UHGV virus genome: UHGV-0138535
DNA length: 53,721 nt
Direction: 5' to 3' (one strand)
DNA from: a virus
The position numbers and the translations under genes are program-made. Below, in pieces: positions 5,243 through 53,358 of this stretch. Numbering within the stretch: position 1 is the first letter of the stretch; every line of letters begins with the position of its first letter. The notes beneath the pieces are model-generated. The model had not been told where the DNA came from. It did not search any database and saw nothing but the letters and a program-made list of their open reading frames with translations.

Positions 5243-5647
5243 TCAAAACGGGATATCGTCATCAAAGTCCATCGGCGGATTATTCCCGTTATTATTCTGC
5301 TGCTGCGGAGGCGCTTTCTGCTGCTGGCCTTGTTGGTTAACGTTCATGAATTCAAATTCGTTAACCGCCACTTCTACCGCCGTTCCCTTCGTGCCGTCGT
5401 TCCGGTCATATTGCCGAACATCCAGGCGACCGCTTACCACTATTTTTCCACCCTTGCGGATATGTGGCGCTAATTTTTCCGCACGCTCACCAAATACCAG
5501 GCAAGTGACCCACATTGTCCGCTTATTATCGCCGTAGCCATTCGTTACAGCTAACGGAAAACTACCAATCGCTTTCCCGTTTTGTGTGTAGCGAACCTCC
5601 ATATCATTACCGATATTCCCGCCCAGCGTGATTGAATTTAAACTCAT
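5243..5647 (-). CDS. ssb: single-stranded DNA-binding protein
   Basis: 134 aa; OB-fold N-terminus (LGGNIGNDMEVRYTQNG), Gln/Pro-rich linker and acidic tail PPMDFDDDIPF typical of SSB. Confidence 0.85.
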   Translation of the reverse strand: MSLNSITLGGNIGNDMEVRYTQNGKAIGSFPLAVTNGYGDNKRTMWVTCLVFGERAEKLAPHIRKGGKIVVSGRLDVRQYDRNDGTKGTAVEVAVNEFEFMNVNQQGQQQKAPPQQQNNNGNNPPMDFDDDIPF

Positions 5648-6291
5648 TAACCCATCTCCCCGTTAAGCTCTGCTACCCGGATGTCATAAACATCTTTTGC
5701 CTTGATTCGATGTTCCGATCCTTCCGGTAGTAATTTCCAGCATTTGCCAAATATTTCACGCAGCTTGTTAGCGTCCTGCGCTTTCGCTGCTGCATCACAG
5801 AAACGTGCTAATACTTCATCAGGATTTGGCGGCGCTTTCTGCTGCTGTGGTTGTTGTTTTGGTGGGTTTTTCTGCTGGCGAGGCTGCTGGCCTGTCTGCT
5901 TAGCGTATGCGTCAGTATCAGGATCTCGCGCATCATCAATGCAGAATAAACCGTTCAAAGCATATTTTCGCGCGTAACTTGATGTCGCACCTGTTAGCTG
6001 GCTTGCGTCCATTCCCTTCTTGCTTTCTTCTTCCCTGGCGTAAGCCGTTACCGCTATTTCGTCTTCACCGTCGCTTAGCGTCGCCGTAGCTTTCACATAA
6101 TAGCGATTGCCGATCAGGACAATTTCATCGCTTACAGTCAGCGTAATACTTTGAAGCAGTGGTTTAACCGCCTCTAAAATATCCTCCGCCGACCTGTAAT
6201 TATATCCACCAAAATTATTACGCTGATTTTTCGGCGCGTTCAGCGTTTGCTGAATCGTCCATAGCTTTTTATGTAACTCTGTTTTCACCAT
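5647..6291 (-). CDS. erf: Erf-family single-strand annealing recombinase
   Basis: 214 aa; conserved block NAPKNQRNNFGGYNYRSAEDILEAVKPLL...DEIVLIGNRYYVKATATL...GATSSYARKYALNGLF matches P22 Erf family. Confidence 0.85.
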   Translation of the reverse strand: MVKTELHKKLWTIQQTLNAPKNQRNNFGGYNYRSAEDILEAVKPLLQSITLTVSDEIVLIGNRYYVKATATLSDGEDEIAVTAYAREEESKKGMDASQLTGATSSYARKYALNGLFCIDDARDPDTDAYAKQTGQQPRQQKNPPKQQPQQQKAPPNPDEVLARFCDAAAKAQDANKLREIFGKCWKLLPEGSEHRIKAKDVYDIRVAELNGEMG

Positions 6292-6407
6292 TTAATCTCC
6301 CGTGCTGTTAACACTATGTATAAGGCTTTATTCGCGGCGCTCCACATTTCGGCATCGTGAAGCATTTCCGCTACTGCCAGTTTGAATTGAAGCGCCTGAA
6401 TAACCAT
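6285..6407 (-). CDS. small hypothetical protein (40 aa)
   Basis: ATG preceded by GGAGAT; stop overlaps erf start; not in track. Confidence 0.35.
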   Translation of the reverse strand: MVIQALQFKLAVAEMLHDAEMWSAANKALYIVLTAREIKW

Positions 6408-6437
6408 AATGTCATCTCCGGATGTTTACATTTTGTA

Positions 6438-6728
6438 TTAATGGTAGCGGACTTTATCCAGGGGTTTTTCCCCTAAATGGCGTGGTTGCGTTGCGTGGTA
6501 GTAGCTGCCGCTTTCATTTTTCGTATACCATTTTACTGATCCTTTGCGACGTTCTTTAATGCTATTTGGTTTGCATCTTTCCTCGTTTGCAAATCGAATA
6601 GCTTTATCCACATTGTCTGTTTTATTGATTGCAGGTGATGATTTTCTTTCGTTTTCTCTTTTTATCCTTCTGCGTTCCCTGGCATTCATTTTGCTATCAC
6701 ATTTACCATATATAATTGTAACGCTCAT
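6438..6728 (-). CDS. putative N-like transcription antiterminator
   Basis: 96 aa; first gene downstream of cI; GGAG 7 nt before ATG; arginine-rich motif ARERRRIKRENERK near N-terminus like lambda/P22 N. Confidence 0.5.
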   Translation of the reverse strand: MSVTIIYGKCDSKMNARERRRIKRENERKSSPAINKTDNVDKAIRFANEERCKPNSIKERRKGSVKWYTKNESGSYYHATQPRHLGEKPLDKVRYH

Positions 6729-6788
6729 AATTTGATCTCCGTATATCCTTGATGATACTTAATAAAAAATCATCTTCGTTAATTGCCG

Positions 6789-6822
6789 CGCTTCCAGCGG
6801 CTGACCAGATTGTTAATGAGCG
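6789..6822 (-). promoter_or_regulatory. putative nutL (boxA-like CGCTCATTAACA plus boxB-like hairpin CGCTGGAAGCG)
   Basis: Minus-strand boxA-like element then small hairpin about 100 nt upstream of N-like gene; near-identical hairpin at nutR candidate. Confidence 0.3.
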
Positions 6823-7195
6823 GCTTAACATCTTTCAACTAATCCCGCAATCATCGCCGTTCCCGGCGTGACCTTGCTCACTCCAAGCAAGCTGACTCGT
6901 CGCCTTGCGTGCGGTTTCGTGGGGGATGTAACGCTTTAAACACCCCATGCGCCTTGTTATCAGTGCCGCTTTCGGTCCCCCATCGGGGAGTTACTCCACG
7001 GTTGACAAGGTGTTAAGCCTGATTTTTAAAGTGCCAGGAAGTTGCTTTTGTTACCTGCGCCCTTCCTTTGACTCGCAATATACGCCCCGTAAAACATCGA
7101 GTCAATCCATTTTGTATACTTTTTTTAAAATATTTTATATGCCATTGATATTTAAATAATAAATAACGTTTTCTGTTTACGTTTTGGTGTTTTCC

Positions 7196-7224
7196 AGGCA
7201 AAGAAAAGCCGCCATTCGGCGGCT
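7196..7224 (-). terminator. intrinsic terminator downstream of repressor gene
   Basis: Hairpin AGCCGCC-GAAT-GGCGGCT followed by TTTTCTTT on minus strand just after cI stop. Confidence 0.5.
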
Positions 7225-7229
7225 AATGT

Positions 7230-7877
7230 TTATGGCAGGTTTACGATCTTCGCATCAACCACCACGCCTATAATTTTTGATTCTGGATTCATAGGGATTG
7301 GCGGATACAGCGGATTGAGCGAACGTAAAAGCCTTTGACCTCCATCAATAATCAACTGTTTAAACGTCGGTATCTGCCCTTCCTCAAGCTGGGCTATAAC
7401 CAGTTTGCCGTCAATAGCTGGCGCGTGCGGGTCCACAAGTATCATCGTCCCCGCCGGGATGCTCAACCCCTGCGGCGCGTTCATTGATTCACCTTTGGCA
7501 ACCAGCCAGTAACTGTCATCTGAACAAATAACGCTAGTCGTAACGTGTCGTAATGCTGAACGCCTTGCGTCATCCATATTGTTTACTGTGTCCTTCCAGT
7601 CAATAACCGGGTAACTACCTAAATCACGCGGCGGCACGGCCTGAAGTGTATTAGAAACAGAATCATCAATGACCATGCCATCATGTGTAACAGTAAACTG
7701 CCGACGACCAAGCTCGCGCATAATCCGCGCAATATCTTCAAGATTTGGCTCTCGGCGACCGTTCAGCCAGTGTGACAGGCCGCCTTTAGTTATCCCCATA
7801 CGATCCGCGAGTGAATCCTGGCTCATGCCCTGCGCCCGCATGAGCTGCTTTGCTAAGTCATACCATTTTGTTTTCAT
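7230..7877 (-). CDS. CI-like prophage repressor (HTH plus S24 LexA-type peptidase domain)
   Basis: 215 aa; N-terminal HTH (SQDSLADRMGITKGGLSHWLNG), C-terminal peptidase with AKGESM serine motif. Confidence 0.85.
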   Translation of the reverse strand: MKTKWYDLAKQLMRAQGMSQDSLADRMGITKGGLSHWLNGRREPNLEDIARIMRELGRRQFTVTHDGMVIDDSVSNTLQAVPPRDLGSYPVIDWKDTVNNMDDARRSALRHVTTSVICSDDSYWLVAKGESMNAPQGLSIPAGTMILVDPHAPAIDGKLVIAQLEEGQIPTFKQLIIDGGQRLLRSLNPLYPPIPMNPESKIIGVVVDAKIVNLP

Positions 7878-8040
7878 GTCGCTACCCTATAACCTCAAAA
7901 AGTTTGATGCAAGTCACAAAACGTGTATTTTAAGCCTTGATCTTAAAATTCCATTTTGTAAACTTGCAGACAAGGTAAGGCCATACTTGCAAAGACGCAA
8001 GGAAAAAGATAACTGAAGGCACAAAAAGGCACTTACCTTA
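7878..8040. promoter_or_regulatory. immunity-region operator/promoter segment
   Basis: Divergent intergenic region with repeated TGCAAG/CTTGCA half-sites (CTTGCAAAGACGCAAG, CTTGCAGACAAG) and a CCATTTTGTAAACTT motif; no Cro-sized ORF found. Confidence 0.4.
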
Positions 8041-8073
8041 TGCTCTTTAAAAATCCGGTGTCGCTGCGAAGCG
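8041..8073 (+). promoter_or_regulatory. putative nutR (boxA-like TGCTCTTTAAAAA plus boxB-like hairpin CGCTGCGAAGCG)
   Basis: Plus-strand leader of right operon; hairpin nearly identical to nutL candidate. Confidence 0.3.
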
Positions 8074-8182
8074 AAAAACAAATATCACGCAACGGCGGGA
8101 TCTGTTGAGCGGTCAGTCACTGCTATCTAATGCTAATGGGATGCCCGCCCGCGCGTTCACTCTAACCATAGGAGAAAATGCG

Positions 8183-8440
8183 ATGAGTATGAACATGATT
8201 AGTAAAGCATGGAACGTAAAACTTAATAGCCCGATTCAAAAACTTGTCTTAATGGCTCTGGCTGAAAAGGCAGATAACAAAGGACGGGTACATGATGCAT
8301 CACGCAAAGAAGTAGCCGCAATGTGTGAACTTCCTGTTCATACGGTACATGATGCCTTCGCCGCGTTAATGGATAAAGGATTTGTTTGTCGTCTTGATGC
8401 ATTCAGTGATGTCTATGTAGTGATGTTGCCGGAGGGATGA
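8183..8440 (+). CDS. winged-helix DNA-binding protein (HTH_36-like)
   Basis: In-frame ATG at 8183 with GGAGAAAA RBS inside track ORF 8105..8440 (track start is TTG); LNSPIQKLVLMALAEKADNKGRV...VHTVHDAFAALMDKGFV. Confidence 0.6.
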   Translation: MSMNMISKAWNVKLNSPIQKLVLMALAEKADNKGRVHDASRKEVAAMCELPVHTVHDAFAALMDKGFVCRLDAFSDVYVVMLPEG

Positions 8441-8443
8441 TCT

Positions 8444-9496
8444 ATGAAGTGGTTTAAGCATGACAGCGATGCGAACCGCGATGAAAAACTTCAAAACGTT
8501 TTGTTAGATTATGGCCTGGAAGGGTACGGGCTTTATTGGTATTGCCTCGAACTAATAACTTATGACGTAGATCAGCACAATCTGAATTTTGACCTACGAC
8601 ATGACGCGAGAATCATTGCGCGAAACGTCGGATCTACTGAAAAACGTATAGAAGAAATGATGAAATACTTCATCGAAATTGGTTTGTTTGAATGTTCTCA
8701 AGGCCACATAACTTGTTTAAAGTTATTGAAAAGGCTGGACCAATCAATGACTTCTAAAAGCGCTTACAGGGCCGCCATAAACACAGCGAAGGAGCAATTA
8801 AAATTAGAAAAGTTAATCAATCCAACACAAAAAGGTCATGATAGGGTCATGACCGGGTCAGGAAAGGGTCATGAATTAGAATTAGAAGTAGAAAAAGAAA
8901 GAGAAAAAGATATATACACTTCGTGTATTGTCGAAAATGAACAAAAAATGGTCAATCAGGATGGCGTAAACGAAGCGGCATTGCGTTGCCTTGCCTTCTA
9001 CAACGACAAGGCAGGATGCAAATGTCGTGATGCTAAGCCATTCGTAGAACTACTGACAGAAACAAAAACACGTAAAGCGTATACGGAGAATGAGATCACG
9101 TTAGTAATTGAGTGGGCTTTAACCCAATGGCGTAGCCGTGGTGGAGTACCTAAGCCTATCAACATTTGCCGGGTAACTAAATTTGATGGGTATCTGACTG
9201 ATGCTGAACAATGGCGCAAACTGTCAGCCACTGTAAACGCTGCCGACGTGGTGGAAGCATTTAACAGCACGTTTGACGGCCTGTTACCACCTGCCGAACT
9301 GGATCGGGATCTTGAACGCAAGATCTATGCGTTCACTGACTACCTGAAAGACAAAAGCATTAACGGCTTTGTCGCCTACTTCGAAACGTTCAAAAACACG
9401 GCTTCAGATTTTTACTTCGGCGATGGCTTCACCGCGACACTTGATTTCCTGCTTAAACCAAAAACGCTACGTGATACGCGCGCTGGCGTTCTTTGA
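8444..9496 (+). CDS. replication initiation protein (DnaD-like N-terminal replisome organiser domain)
   Basis: 350 aa; N-terminus MKWFKHDSDANRDEKLQNVLLDYGLEGYGLYWYCLE typical of phage replisome organisers; precedes helicase. Confidence 0.7.
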   Translation: MKWFKHDSDANRDEKLQNVLLDYGLEGYGLYWYCLELITYDVDQHNLNFDLRHDARIIARNVGSTEKRIEEMMKYFIEIGLFECSQGHITCLKLLKRLDQSMTSKSAYRAAINTAKEQLKLEKLINPTQKGHDRVMTGSGKGHELELEVEKEREKDIYTSCIVENEQKMVNQDGVNEAALRCLAFYNDKAGCKCRDAKPFVELLTETKTRKAYTENEITLVIEWALTQWRSRGGVPKPINICRVTKFDGYLTDAEQWRKLSATVNAADVVEAFNSTFDGLLPPAELDRDLERKIYAFTDYLKDKSINGFVAYFETFKNTASDFYFGDGFTATLDFLLKPKTLRDTRAGVL

Positions 9497-9629
9497 CCAA
9501 TCACGATCCGCAAAAATCCAAAATTACCCACAAAACAACCTCACCAGCGAGCTAAATCGCATGTGGTGCTACACTTGCTTACCTTTTTGCGATTAGCTCG
9601 TTATAGAGCGTTACGGAGAGGATTTTAAA

Positions 9630-10440: not shown

Positions 10441-11559
10441 ATGTCGCAAAGAAAAATCAGCGATGAGCAATTGATCGCTGAATATAACAACGGTTTAACG
10501 TACAAGCAGATCGCTGAAAAATATGGCATGTCAAAACGCAACGTCGAGCGGCTGGGCGCAAAGCTGGCGAAACGCGGTTTATTATCAACGCGCCGCGCCC
10601 CTGGTTTTGGCGTTACTGGTGAGTCGGTTCTTGTCGATAAGGATGGGAATACAGTCATGCGCTGGATTAAAACAGCCCGTGATCGCGATGAAATGGAAAG
10701 GCTAATGGAAGCGGCCCGCGACGCTTTCACTGAAGAAATCCCACGCGCGGAGGCCGTGCCAGTGCCGGAAATTGATTTTCAAAAAAGCCTGGCCCTTTAT
10801 CCGGTATTTGATCTGCATATCGGGGCGCTTGCTCATAAAGCTGAATGCGGCGAGAGTTACGACACTGGGATCGCTGAGCGCGTATTGAATGAATTCTTTG
10901 ACTACGCTGTAGGCGCTGCGCCGATGTCTGAGAAAGCTGTTTTGCTTCTCGGTGGGGATGTTCTTCACACTGACGGGCTGTTGCCAGTTACGCCATCAAG
11001 CAATCACGTTCTTGATTGCGATTCGCGCTATGCAAAACTTGTCTATGTAGCGATCAGGTCGGTCCGGCGGGCTGTCGGGAAGATGTTGTTAAATCATAGG
11101 GATATTGAAATCCAGGTACTATCAGGCAATCACGACCAGTCTGGTATGATTTGGCTACGTGCTGCGCTGGCGGCTTTTTACGAAGACGAACCGCGCGTAA
11201 CTGTTGATGTGTCCCCTGCTATCGTCCACCACACACAGTACGGCAAAACATTCCTTGCTTACCACCACGGGCACACTATCAAAAAGCCGGAAAATTTATT
11301 GTCTGCTTGCGTAGCTGACTGGCGTGAGGATTTCGGCAAGTCTGCGGCGGTTTACGCTCATTGCGGGCACTGGCACCATCAACGGCTGATTGAATCATCG
11401 CTAGGCGTTGTTGAGTATCACGGCACATTAGCGGGCAAAGACGCTTATTCAACTAATGGCGGCTGGCGGTCGCGGCGTCTGGCAGCGGTGATTATTTACA
11501 GCCCGGATCATGGGGAGATCGGGCGCTTTGTTTATTACCCTGAACATTCCATTTTGTAA
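10441..11559 (+). CDS. HTH domain fused to calcineurin-like metallophosphoesterase
   Basis: 372 aa; N-terminal sigma-70 region 4-like HTH; phosphoesterase motifs FDLHIG, GGDVLHTDG, GNHD, HHGH, GHWHH. Confidence 0.6.
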   Translation: MSQRKISDEQLIAEYNNGLTYKQIAEKYGMSKRNVERLGAKLAKRGLLSTRRAPGFGVTGESVLVDKDGNTVMRWIKTARDRDEMERLMEAARDAFTEEIPRAEAVPVPEIDFQKSLALYPVFDLHIGALAHKAECGESYDTGIAERVLNEFFDYAVGAAPMSEKAVLLLGGDVLHTDGLLPVTPSSNHVLDCDSRYAKLVYVAIRSVRRAVGKMLLNHRDIEIQVLSGNHDQSGMIWLRAALAAFYEDEPRVTVDVSPAIVHHTQYGKTFLAYHHGHTIKKPENLLSACVADWREDFGKSAAVYAHCGHWHHQRLIESSLGVVEYHGTLAGKDAYSTNGGWRSRRLAAVIIYSPDHGEIGRFVYYPEHSIL

Positions 11560-11577
11560 ACAGGAGGCAATAACATA

Positions 11578-29975: not shown

Positions 29976-30102
29976 GATTTAACCTCATGCAAAAATGTGA
30001 TCTGTGTATCTATTTTATACAAAATGGCTTTACTTCAACGACTCCATTTTGTATAAGGAAGCTAAAGGGAATGGTCAGTAAATCAAGTTAGCGTGGTGGG
30101 TT

Positions 30103-46541: not shown

Positions 46542-46622
46542 TTTTCTACCCTCCGCATCGTTCTCTCTTCAGCTTCTTTATAACAAAATGGCACTGCCGA
46601 AACAATGCCATTTCGTAAACCT

Positions 46623-53238: not shown

Positions 53239-53358
53239 AATGCTCTCTCCTTTTCAGGTGATTTCTACGCATTTCAGCGCTGCCGGATTTTTAAAGAGCA
53301 TTTTGTTTGCTTGAAGTATACAAAATGGATACGTGCTAACAAGGTGCAAAGCGCCATT

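Follow-up and report, generated by a model that had tools for sequence, protein, structure and literature searches.

The locus analysed here lies in a stretch of viral DNA of 53,721 nucleotides (UHGV virus genome UHGV-0138535; referred to throughout as the window) and comprises, on the minus strand, a gene for a CI-type repressor and a gene for an N-like protein of 96 residues, together with a divergent, plus-strand set of genes that begins with those for a small winged-helix protein and a replication protein. To judge from sequence comparison, the window is a mEpimmI (mEp021-group) coliphage or prophage: its DNA is 89.6–92.8% identical to that of mEp515, mEp010 and mEp021, and it comes closest to the prophages carried by E. 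coli M1/5 and its related strains (99.8% identity to that of M1/5), E. coli prophages at this identity being present in 35 of 5426 genomes. The mEp021 record runs in the opposite direction to the window, so that what the initial annotation called leftward is rightward for the mEp021 authors. Repressor, terminator, leader, N-like gene, kil-like gene, Erf and SSB follow one another in the same order in mEp021/mEpimmI and in the window, and only allelic differences from mEp021 were found, the winged-helix/replication module being of another type (33% identity). The mEpimmI group was originally isolated as Nus-dependent (PMC11893012) and its N/nut system is already published; the window adds one more member of the family.

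The repressor gene (7230–7877, minus strand) encodes a homologue of Rep021 with HTH_3 and Peptidase_S24 domains (Pfam, E=1.5e-12 and 5.8e-19, respectively), which is 95% identical to mEp021 Rep021 and 90–98% identical across the relatives; repressor function has been shown for Rep021 (PMC11893012). After it, also on the minus strand, comes an intrinsic terminator (7207–7224), a 7-bp GC-rich stem and then a T run, which is TERM_1 in the mEp021 annotation; terminator t1 is listed as experimentally shown (PMC11893012). The putative early promoter of the N operon (TTGACT-17-TATATT; 7077–7105, minus strand) is the best promoter-like site of the region, with 10 of 12 matches; its hexamers are conserved, with an unrelated spacer in the relatives L021 and L022. 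Hexamer conservation likewise points to a promoter of the divergent (replication) operon (TTGATC-16-TAAACT; 7937–7964, plus strand), where both hexamers are kept and the spacer varies in relatives, the score being below the scan threshold. A further candidate (TTGTTA-16-TATACT; 53315–53342, minus strand; 9 of 12 matches) lies directly upstream of the third nut site described below. The exact positions of these promoters are predictions. The 13-mer CCATTTTGTAWAC is common to all three early promoter regions; it is dispersed at promoter-like sites, and a plus-strand copy (7107–7119) is directed at the 3' end of cI. Terminator-like hairpins downstream in the N operon (4697–4681, 2411–2387 and 53017–52999) would, by position, correspond to those annotated in mEp021 as TERM_2 to TERM_4; no terminator having a distinct U-tract was seen just downstream of the nut site of the divergent leader. 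Between that nut site and the first divergent gene, conservation of the intergenic DNA is at its highest (8074–8182), and this part contains a GC-rich long hairpin (8087–8156, plus strand; inverted repeat 8087–8099/8144–8156) whose fold is no better than that of shuffled sequences (z=−0.01). The initial annotation had drawn attention to repeated CTTGCA/TGCAAG half-sites in the divergent region, and these are indeed present: an operator-like cluster of ACTTGCA/TGCAAGT repeats, recognized by its clustering and its conservation in relatives, occupies 7908–8001 and includes a dyad, CTTGCA-N4-CGCAAG, at 7986–8001. Three of the nine copies in the window fall within 84 bp (7908–7991), although over the full length of the window the repeat shows no enrichment (nine copies against 8.4 expected). 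This dyad and the 13-mer are rival candidates for the CI operator: at the rightward promoter the CTTGCA dyad is kept in relatives, and the corresponding TGCAAG beside pL has disappeared from divergent relatives with the same CI.

The 96-residue protein is encoded at 6438–6728 (minus strand) and contains ARERRRIKRENERK, as expected for the arginine-rich protein noticed at the outset. A profile search matched it to phrog_271, ‘anti-termination protein N-like’ (E=2e-13), and it is 92% identical to mEp021 Gp17; with the Pfam family N_peptide (PF25694) it gave E=0.022 and 15.7 bits, below the cut-off of 27.9. Residue conservation in relatives places the arginine-rich motif (ARM), NARERRRIKRENERK, at residues 15–29 (6642–6686, minus strand): down to 60% identity, N15, A16, R17, R20, K23 and R24 are invariant and R19 and R21 nearly so. 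R17, R19, R20, R21 and R24 are all present in the window's protein, as in Gp17, and R17, R19, R20 and R24 have been reported to be conserved across 48 phages (PMC11893012). The true start of the gene is the first ATG, which has GGAG 8 nt upstream, and the ARM therefore lies at residues 15–29 and not at the extreme N-terminus; the internal Met14 was rejected as a start because most relatives have Leu at this position and the ribosome-binding site precedes the first ATG. Homologues are few: tblastn against 50,697 phage records found just seven family members, and a search of 5.8 billion proteins gave 31 clusters, all from the same phage family and none of them named. Among solved structures, a sequence search of the PDB with this protein as query retrieved neither an N chain nor a Nun chain. 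According to the summary in a later paper (PMC11893012, citing Valencia-Toxqui 2023), Gp17 is an experimentally characterized N-lambda-like antiterminator acting at nutR1, nutR2 and nutL, this activity having been demonstrated for mEp021 and not for the phage of the window.

Three nut sites were located in the window, at 6785–6821 (minus strand), 8041–8074 (plus strand) and 53267–53300 (minus strand), each with an rrn-like boxA, about 7 nt and then a 4–5 bp hairpin capped by a U-GNRA-W loop. They lie in the same positions as those of the mEp021 Gp17/nut system (Valencia-Toxqui 2023; Negrete-Mendez 2025, PMC11893012), with which the window also shares the type of repressor (Rep021) and the ARM arginines, and all three agree with the description in that paper and with the mEp021 annotation. 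In the authors' naming they are nutR1, upstream of gp17; nutL, in the divergent leader, upstream of the repressor gene and on the other strand; and nutR2, downstream of a cytosine methyltransferase gene as in mEp021, a third site that was absent from the initial annotation. The boxA of nutR1 is GCTCATTAACAA (6810–6821, minus strand), an exact motif match; relatives have GCTCTTTAACAA at this position, which we take to be an rrn-type boxA. Sequence and covariation together define its boxB as GCCGC-UGGAAGC-GCGGC (6785–6801), the conserved pairing being GCCGC/GCGGC; in relatives it reads GCUAC-UGAAAU-GUAGC, GCAC-UGAAAA-GUGC or UCGC-UGAAAU-GCGA. At nutL, an exact boxA, TGCTCTTTAAAAA (8041–8053, plus strand), precedes the boxB UCGC-UGCGAA-GCGA (8061–8074), supported in the same way, whose stem is kept with the loop variants UGCGAU (mEp515) and UGUGAA (UMNK88). 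The nutR2 site has the same boxA, TGCTCTTTAAAAA (53288–53300), and the boxB GCGC-UGAAAU-GCGU (53267–53280), one stem pair of which varies among G-U, C-G and A-U in relatives; boxA and spacer, TGCTCTTTAAAAATCCGG, are identical at nutL and nutR2. A boxA-like sequence followed by nearly identical hairpins had been described in both early leaders. The boxA matches and both hairpins are there, but the likeness of the hairpins is partly due to base 6790 in the nutR1 boxB loop, which is C in the window only and U in all 39 other family copies. The nutR1 boxB of the window departs from the hexaloop consensus because its loop has 7 nt and allows two registers.

Elements as short as these might resemble boxA and boxB by chance in AT-rich intergenic DNA. 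Indeed, boxA by itself is no proof, since the 11-mer GCTCWTTAAMA is not enriched at up to one mismatch (nine in the window against 5.6 expected). However, its exact matches (6811–6821, minus strand; 8042–8052, plus strand; 53289–53299, minus strand) have, in three cases out of three, a hairpin at the same distance downstream, and the hairpin core CGCTG(N0-1)GAAGCG occurs exactly twice in the window (6789–6799, minus strand; 8062–8073, plus strand), where about 0.04 would be expected by chance. More directly, the stems stay paired through compensatory changes in relatives, and this covariation contradicts the chance reading, to which we give next to no weight. In a set of hairpins from the three sites and several relatives, picked by eye, the 11 distinct boxB hairpins had 100% of cells paired, with three of four pairs changed on both sides; the score was reached by none of 500 shuffles and slid controls were all poor. 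The stems seen were GCCGC, GCUAC, GCAC, UCGC, GCGC, CCGC and ACGC, and every loop was U-G-N-R-A-W. The covariation is thus an independent, sequence-only confirmation of nut sites experimentally defined in one phage, and it refines the description of boxB to a 4–5 bp stem with a U-GNRA-W loop. If the hairpins are genuine, the protein that reads them could still act in the opposite sense. HK022 Nun is an ARM protein that binds the boxB RNA of competing phages and terminates their transcription, and ARM proteins of similar size are known to act in this way, so that a Nun-like exclusion factor might be envisaged. The phage's own three leaders, however, carry matching, co-varying boxB elements ahead of the replication, recombination and Q genes, which would make Nun-like action self-destructive; moreover, the N-like gene lies in an early lytic operon downstream of a repressed promoter and not in a lysogen-expressed unit, and antitermination is what the published summary reports (PMC11893012). 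An exclusion factor is therefore highly improbable.

The reading that we prefer, with a probability of about 0.9, is that a temperate mEpimmI coliphage has its immunity and early-control module here, with N-type antitermination at nut sites and no Cro. Our working model is that cI (7230–7877, minus strand) would be followed on the same strand by the terminator and then by the early promoter (7105–7077) that starts the N operon, while a second early promoter, divergent from the start of cI, would drive the replication genes. Each early transcript would carry a nut site, as would a third transcription unit, located before the nin/Q genes. The 96-residue protein would bind boxB RNA through its ARM (residues 15–29), probably by direct contact with the loop, and host Nus factors would be held at boxA; together with the protein they would make RNA polymerase resistant to termination, so that it could pass the terminators before the recombination, Q and replication genes. 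The model is built on sequence features, their conservation and boxB stem covariation that are directly observed, and antitermination activity and Nus dependence of the mEp021 protein, which is 92% identical, have been reported by others, as summarized in PMC11893012. The N-type antitermination proposed in the initial annotation thus finds support in the phrog_271 match, the identity to Gp17, that report and the covariation of boxB.

The arrangement invites comparison with lambda at several levels. Lambda N is a small basic ARM protein that is Nus-dependent and acts with boxA and a short boxB hairpin, found in each of the two early leaders, its gene being the first in an operon downstream of a repressor-controlled promoter. 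The window has in common with this system a small basic protein (96 residues) with an ARM near its N-terminus, as in lambda N-type antiterminators, boxA followed by boxB in the early leaders, an N gene that is first in its operon and a Q-type late regulator further on. Yet there is no detectable pairwise sequence similarity between lambda N and the window's protein, the Pfam match being sub-threshold, and, unlike in lambda N, a conserved extension of 14 residues precedes the ARM, which begins at residue 15. The window has three nut sites instead of two, and its boxB has a U-GNRA-W hexaloop (7 nt at nutR1) with a GNRA core, as against the GAAGA/GAAAA pentaloop of lambda, which folds like a GNRA tetraloop. 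Also unlike in lambda, the N, recombination, nin, Q, lysis and structural genes all run in one direction and only the replication genes are divergent; neither Cro nor CII or CIII was recognized in the window. In the N proteins of P22 (gene 24) and phage 21, as presumably in that of the window, specificity goes together with the loop of boxB. By visual comparison, the ARM of the window's protein begins N-A-(K/R)-x-R-R, as does that of P22 gene 24, which we take to be GNAKTRRHERRRK; on the same visual basis, loop sequence and size differ from those of P22 and phage 21, with no measurable homology outside the ARM. Relatives that lack the RNA block described below have the boxA TGCTCTTTAACAA, presumably the E. 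coli rrn consensus, the window having TGCTCTTTAAAAA or GCTCATTAACAA; compared with rrn boxA, the phage sites add a downstream boxB hairpin and probably need a phage protein.

That no ORF in the divergent interval resembles Cro was a further claim of the initial annotation, and the conclusion that the module appears to have no Cro gene stands. Comparison with relatives revealed no conserved ORF between the start of cI and the first rightward gene, and the window's 433 ORFs include neither a second HTH_3 protein nor, in what is a weak test, any match to the Cro proteins of lambda, P22 or 434. A check for very short or non-ATG-initiated candidates gave just unconserved small ORFs and a TTG-started N-terminal extension of the winged-helix ORF (8105–8440, 111 residues), the plus-strand ORFs touching 7878–8182 being, besides this extension, of 63 (7825–8016), 27, 22, 13 and 11 residues. 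The 63-residue ORF was rejected as a hidden Cro since its start lies within cI, in antisense orientation and before the promoter, and stop codons interrupt it in 8 of 14 relatives, and the 22-residue ORF over nutL since its ATG is AAG in most relatives.

The first rightward gene, after the nut site, does encode the expected 85-residue winged-helix protein (8183–8440, plus strand). It matches phrog_4617, ‘replication initiation protein’, at profile positions 1–89 of 223 (E=4e-23), and is followed by a gene for a replication protein with Lin1244_N and C-terminal domains, assigned by profile matches (8444–9496, plus strand), which contains four GGTCAKGA iterons at 11-bp spacing (8834–8874). In the lambdoid CI/Cro switch, Cro is the first gene divergent from cI; here that place, after the promoter and nut site, is taken by a variable winged-helix gene, and a small protein with a DNA-binding fold might be a functional Cro that binds the operators and shuts off cI. 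Its pattern of conservation argues strongly otherwise. Whereas CI is 90–98% identical and the intergenic DNA is conserved, the 85-residue protein is only 33–79% identical among relatives with the same immunity region (33–35% for mEp021, mEp010 and mEp044), an unrelated 134-residue protein takes its place in L022, and in E. coli PAR its counterpart exists only as an N-terminal domain fused to the replication initiator. The homology break among relatives falls exactly at its start codon, and the protein families that match it best do so through the N-terminal domains of replication initiators. By all these comparisons the protein is a member of the replication module, not the immunity module, and not Cro, and we consider a Cro function for it very unlikely. 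It could also be argued that a Cro-like function is provided by other means, namely a micro-ORF, an antisense RNA or a variable antirepressor encoded in the slot (Ant/Rha/BRO) that follows the replication gene. In relatives the genes downstream of the replication gene do include Ant, Rha or BRO, the promoter-like 13-mer on the plus strand at 7107–7119 is aimed at the 3' end of cI, and it has been reported that lysogens are not UV-inducible and that Rep021 has no Ala-Gly cleavage site (PMC11893012). In the window, however, the product of the variable slot is an endonuclease-like zinc-ribbon protein and not an antirepressor, the search of the 433 ORFs, weak as it is, gave no candidate, and the present data contain no indication that a Cro-like function is needed; we regard such a substitute as rather unlikely. 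On the preferred reading of a module without Cro, a common gut coliphage family seems to run a lambda-like repressor switch in the absence of this protein, and would be a natural test case for the necessity of Cro.

The leader of the N operon contains, between pL and nutR1, a block of about 198 nt (6822–7019, minus strand) that appears, from its fold (z-score −2.45) and from compensatory changes (one helix with three such changes and one G-U change), to be a structured, non-coding and family-specific RNA. The block is carried by most members of the group and absent from mEp044, mEp013 and mEp554. In mEp021 the region is annotated as the 37-residue gp16, which we reject as a protein because the block is missing in these three phages, because the substitutions in L003/L004 are non-conservative for the peptide and compensatory for the RNA helix, and because there is no PGAP gene call there. 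Rfam searches of 5500–9500 and, with laxer filters, of 6760–7110 gave no credible match for the leaders or the block, and scans of metagenomes and IMG/VR added almost no sequence variation to it. We tentatively speculate, with some doubt, that mEpimmI phages have a CI-N-Q cascade without a Cro-type or recognizable CII-type protein in which, in most members, this N-leader RNA, of a class absent from Rfam, tunes N expression or yields a small RNA, replacing part of the protein decision logic of lambda. A structured RNA in the N leader that is highly conserved yet dispensable could matter for phage regulation. It is present as a single copy per genome and restricted to the mEpimmI prophage family, a distribution that led us to reject the idea that it is a dispersed repeat (MITE).

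The region analysed here belongs to an already known group of phages. The 2.3 kb around it shares 89.6–92.8% identity, over 86–100% of its length, with mEp515, mEp010 and mEp021, Mexican phages of E. coli described as the 'mEpimmI' group in PMC11893012, and 99.8% identity with prophages of E. coli M1/5 and strains related to it; of 5426 complete E. coli genomes, 35 contain a relative. In the phage records it is the minus strand that matches the window, so that the operon termed leftward in the initial annotation is the authors' rightward operon. On the minus strand lie a CI-type repressor gene (HTH_3 plus Peptidase_S24; 7230–7877), its terminator (7224–7207), a strong promoter-like site, TTGACT-17-TATATT (7105–7077; pL), and genes for a 96-aa protein with an arginine-rich motif (ARM; 6438–6728), a 40-aa Kil-like ORF (6285–6407), Erf (5647–6291) and SSB (5243–5647); on the plus strand, an 85-aa winged-helix protein (8183–8440) precedes a 350-aa replication protein (8444–9496). 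The 40-aa ORF, directly 3' of the ARM gene, weakly matches lambda Kil (Pfam E=2.2e-4, below the cut-off; phrog_2055 E=1.4e-3).

Both nut sites proposed in the initial annotation are confirmed. The hairpin core CGCTG(N0-1)GAAGCG has just two occurrences, at 6789–6799 (minus strand) and 8062–8073 (plus strand), compared with 0.04 expected by chance, and each hairpin is preceded by an exact boxA. A third exact boxA was found at 53289–53299 (minus strand); the sequence at this place is TGCTCTTTAAAAATCCGG, identical to the plus-strand site, followed by GCGC-UGAAAU-GCGU, and it lies downstream of a cytosine methyltransferase gene, the place given for nutR2 in PMC11893012. In aligned relatives, boxB takes the forms GCCGC-UGGAAGY-GCGGC, GCUAC-UGAAAU-GUAGC, GCAC-UGAAAA-GUGC and UCGC-UGAAAU-GCGA at nutR1 and UCGC-UGCGAA-GCGA (loop variants UGCGAU and UGUGAA) at nutL, and at nutR2 a stem base pair is G-U, C-G or A-U. 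Among 11 distinct hairpins all 44 of 44 cells were paired, with both-side changes in three of the four pairs, a score reached in none of 500 shuffles, and all slid controls failed. From these forms and their covariation, boxB can be defined as a 4–5 bp stem with a U-GNRA-W hexaloop. The nutR1 of the window is the exception, with a 7-nt loop containing a C at 6790 that is unique among 40 family copies; this C partly accounts for the two hairpins having been described as nearly identical. Downstream, the N operon contains terminator-like hairpins, at positions comparable to those of terminators annotated in mEp021. The nutR2 boxA is preceded, at a distance of about 15 nt, by a promoter-like site, TTGTTA-16-TATACT (53315–53342, minus strand), so transcription into the third nut site may start here as a separate unit instead of coming solely from the N operon.

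The proposed N-type antitermination is supported by the protein as well as by boxB covariation. The 96-aa protein matched the PHROG family 'anti-termination protein N-like' (E=2e-13) and is 92% identical to Gp17 of mEp021; its Pfam N_peptide match fell under the cut-off and it matched none of the solved N structures. Homologues group into 31 clusters, a small closed family whose members, down to 60% identity, all retain N15, A16, R17, R20, K23 and R24, in agreement with the conserved R17/R19/R20/R24 of PMC11893012. A GGAG Shine–Dalgarno sequence precedes the first ATG and most relatives have Leu in place of Met14, which puts the ARM at an internal position (residues 15–29). According to PMC11893012, early antitermination by Gp17 at nutR1, nutR2 and nutL was shown experimentally, and the mEpimmI group is Nus-dependent. 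The initial observation is confirmed and its interpretation supported, the window system being a member of the published Gp17 system. Its mode of action would be like that of lambda N/nut, from which it differs in its internal ARM, boxB hexaloop, three nut sites, operon layout and absence of Cro.

The absence of a Cro gene, also claimed initially, was upheld. Few plus-strand ORFs lie in the interval from the cI start (7877) to the first rightward gene (8183): four short ones (27, 22, 13 and 11 aa), a TTG-started extension of the winged-helix ORF, and a 63-aa ORF that begins antisense inside cI and was rejected, since 8 of 14 relatives have it interrupted by stop codons. In a weak test, 433 ORFs included no second HTH_3 ORF and none resembling Cro. 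Ten further early proteins included no regulator of the Cro kind, the mEp021 annotation has no cro, and PMC11893012 (2025) does not discuss Cro.

The winged-helix protein is itself unlikely to be Cro. The intergenic DNA shows good conservation as far as the first rightward gene, homology ending exactly at the start codon, and CI is 90–98% identical across relatives in which this gene encodes a type-A winged helix (58–79% identical), a type-B winged helix (mEp021, mEp010 and mEp044; 33–35%), an unrelated 134-aa protein (one metagenomic relative) or a 332-aa initiator (E. coli PAR). A protein binding shared operators could not vary so, and the 85-aa protein is therefore assigned to the replication module. 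Among protein families it best matches the N-terminal domains of replication initiators (E=4e-23); residues 3–92 of the PAR initiator match it (E=4e-13), and residues 143–332 share 87% identity with the C-terminus of the window replication protein. Four GGTCAKGA iterons with 11-bp spacing (8834–8874), flanked by AT-rich repeats, likely mark an origin inside the 350-aa gene. Domains of the replication module (8183–9496, plus strand; 3566–4564 in L006; relatives L021 and L022) are shuffled among phages with the same immunity region: as a free-standing protein the winged helix comes in two sequence types, in PAR it is joined to the C-terminal domain of the initiator, replacing the Lin1244_N domain, and in the relative L021 the two forms stand in tandem.

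There are two candidates for the repressor site. Three of the nine window copies of ACTTGCA/TGCAAGT cluster at 7908–7991, and the dyad CTTGCA-N4-CGCAAG (7986–8001) is kept in relatives; the TGCAAG adjoining pL is lost in divergent relatives with the same CI. The other candidate, the 13-mer CCATTTTGTAWAC, occurs at pL, the rightward promoter and the promoter-like site preceding nutR2. Matches to the 13-mer CCATTTTGTWWAC exceed expectation (26 with up to two mismatches versus 7.5 ± 2.7 expected; 0 of 100 shuffles reach 26), and all three early promoter regions have it at or adjoining them. Copies lie at 7107–7119, 7951–7963, 11549–11561 and 53384–53396 (plus strand), at 27036–27048 and 53316–53328 (minus strand) and, as two inverted pairs 16 bp apart between divergent genes, at 30015–30027 (minus)/30044–30056 (plus) and 46579–46591 (minus)/46608–46620 (plus). 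The best copies are intergenic, in promoter-like places, with the TAWAMN part at the -10 hexamer position; the 13-mer may be a promoter core common to several sites, or it may be bound by a phage regulator, perhaps the repressor. The leader from nutL to the first rightward gene (8074–8182, plus strand) is the best-conserved intergenic part, retained even before an unrelated downstream gene; it contains a long GC-rich hairpin (8087–8099/8144–8156) without a U-tract, of predicted stability no better than shuffles (z=-0.01).

Only the Cro-less architecture and a structured RNA in the N leader may be new. The latter is a block of about 198 nt (6822–7019, minus strand) between pL and the nutR1 boxA, closed by an imperfect terminal inverted repeat of about 18 nt and starting just past a second, degenerate boxA-like copy (GCACTTTAAAAATCAGG, 7034–7018). 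The block is missing in mEp044, mEp013, mEp554 and a number of prophages; there, pL leads to a perfect TGCTCTTTAACAA boxA, and relative to them the indel spans about 6822–7037. In our searches it was found only in E. coli prophages of this family, once per genome in 31 of 35, and 22 of the 31 copies are 100% identical despite diverging flanks. The block has a predicted fold of -74.8 kcal/mol (z=-2.45) and no Rfam match; in the prophages of E. coli STEC308 and RM9245, a helix at about 6873–6891 carries three compensatory changes and a single G-U change. The 37-aa gp16 annotated here in mEp021 was rejected, as substitutions fit an RNA and not a peptide. The STEC308 and RM9245 prophages also encode a diverged N-like protein (70% identical; ARM NAR(A/K)RRRMKRAAEQ), and their homology to the window stops between boxA and boxB, nutR1 being rebuilt as GCUAC-UGAAAU-GUAGC with nutL unchanged, a natural module swap usable for specificity mapping.
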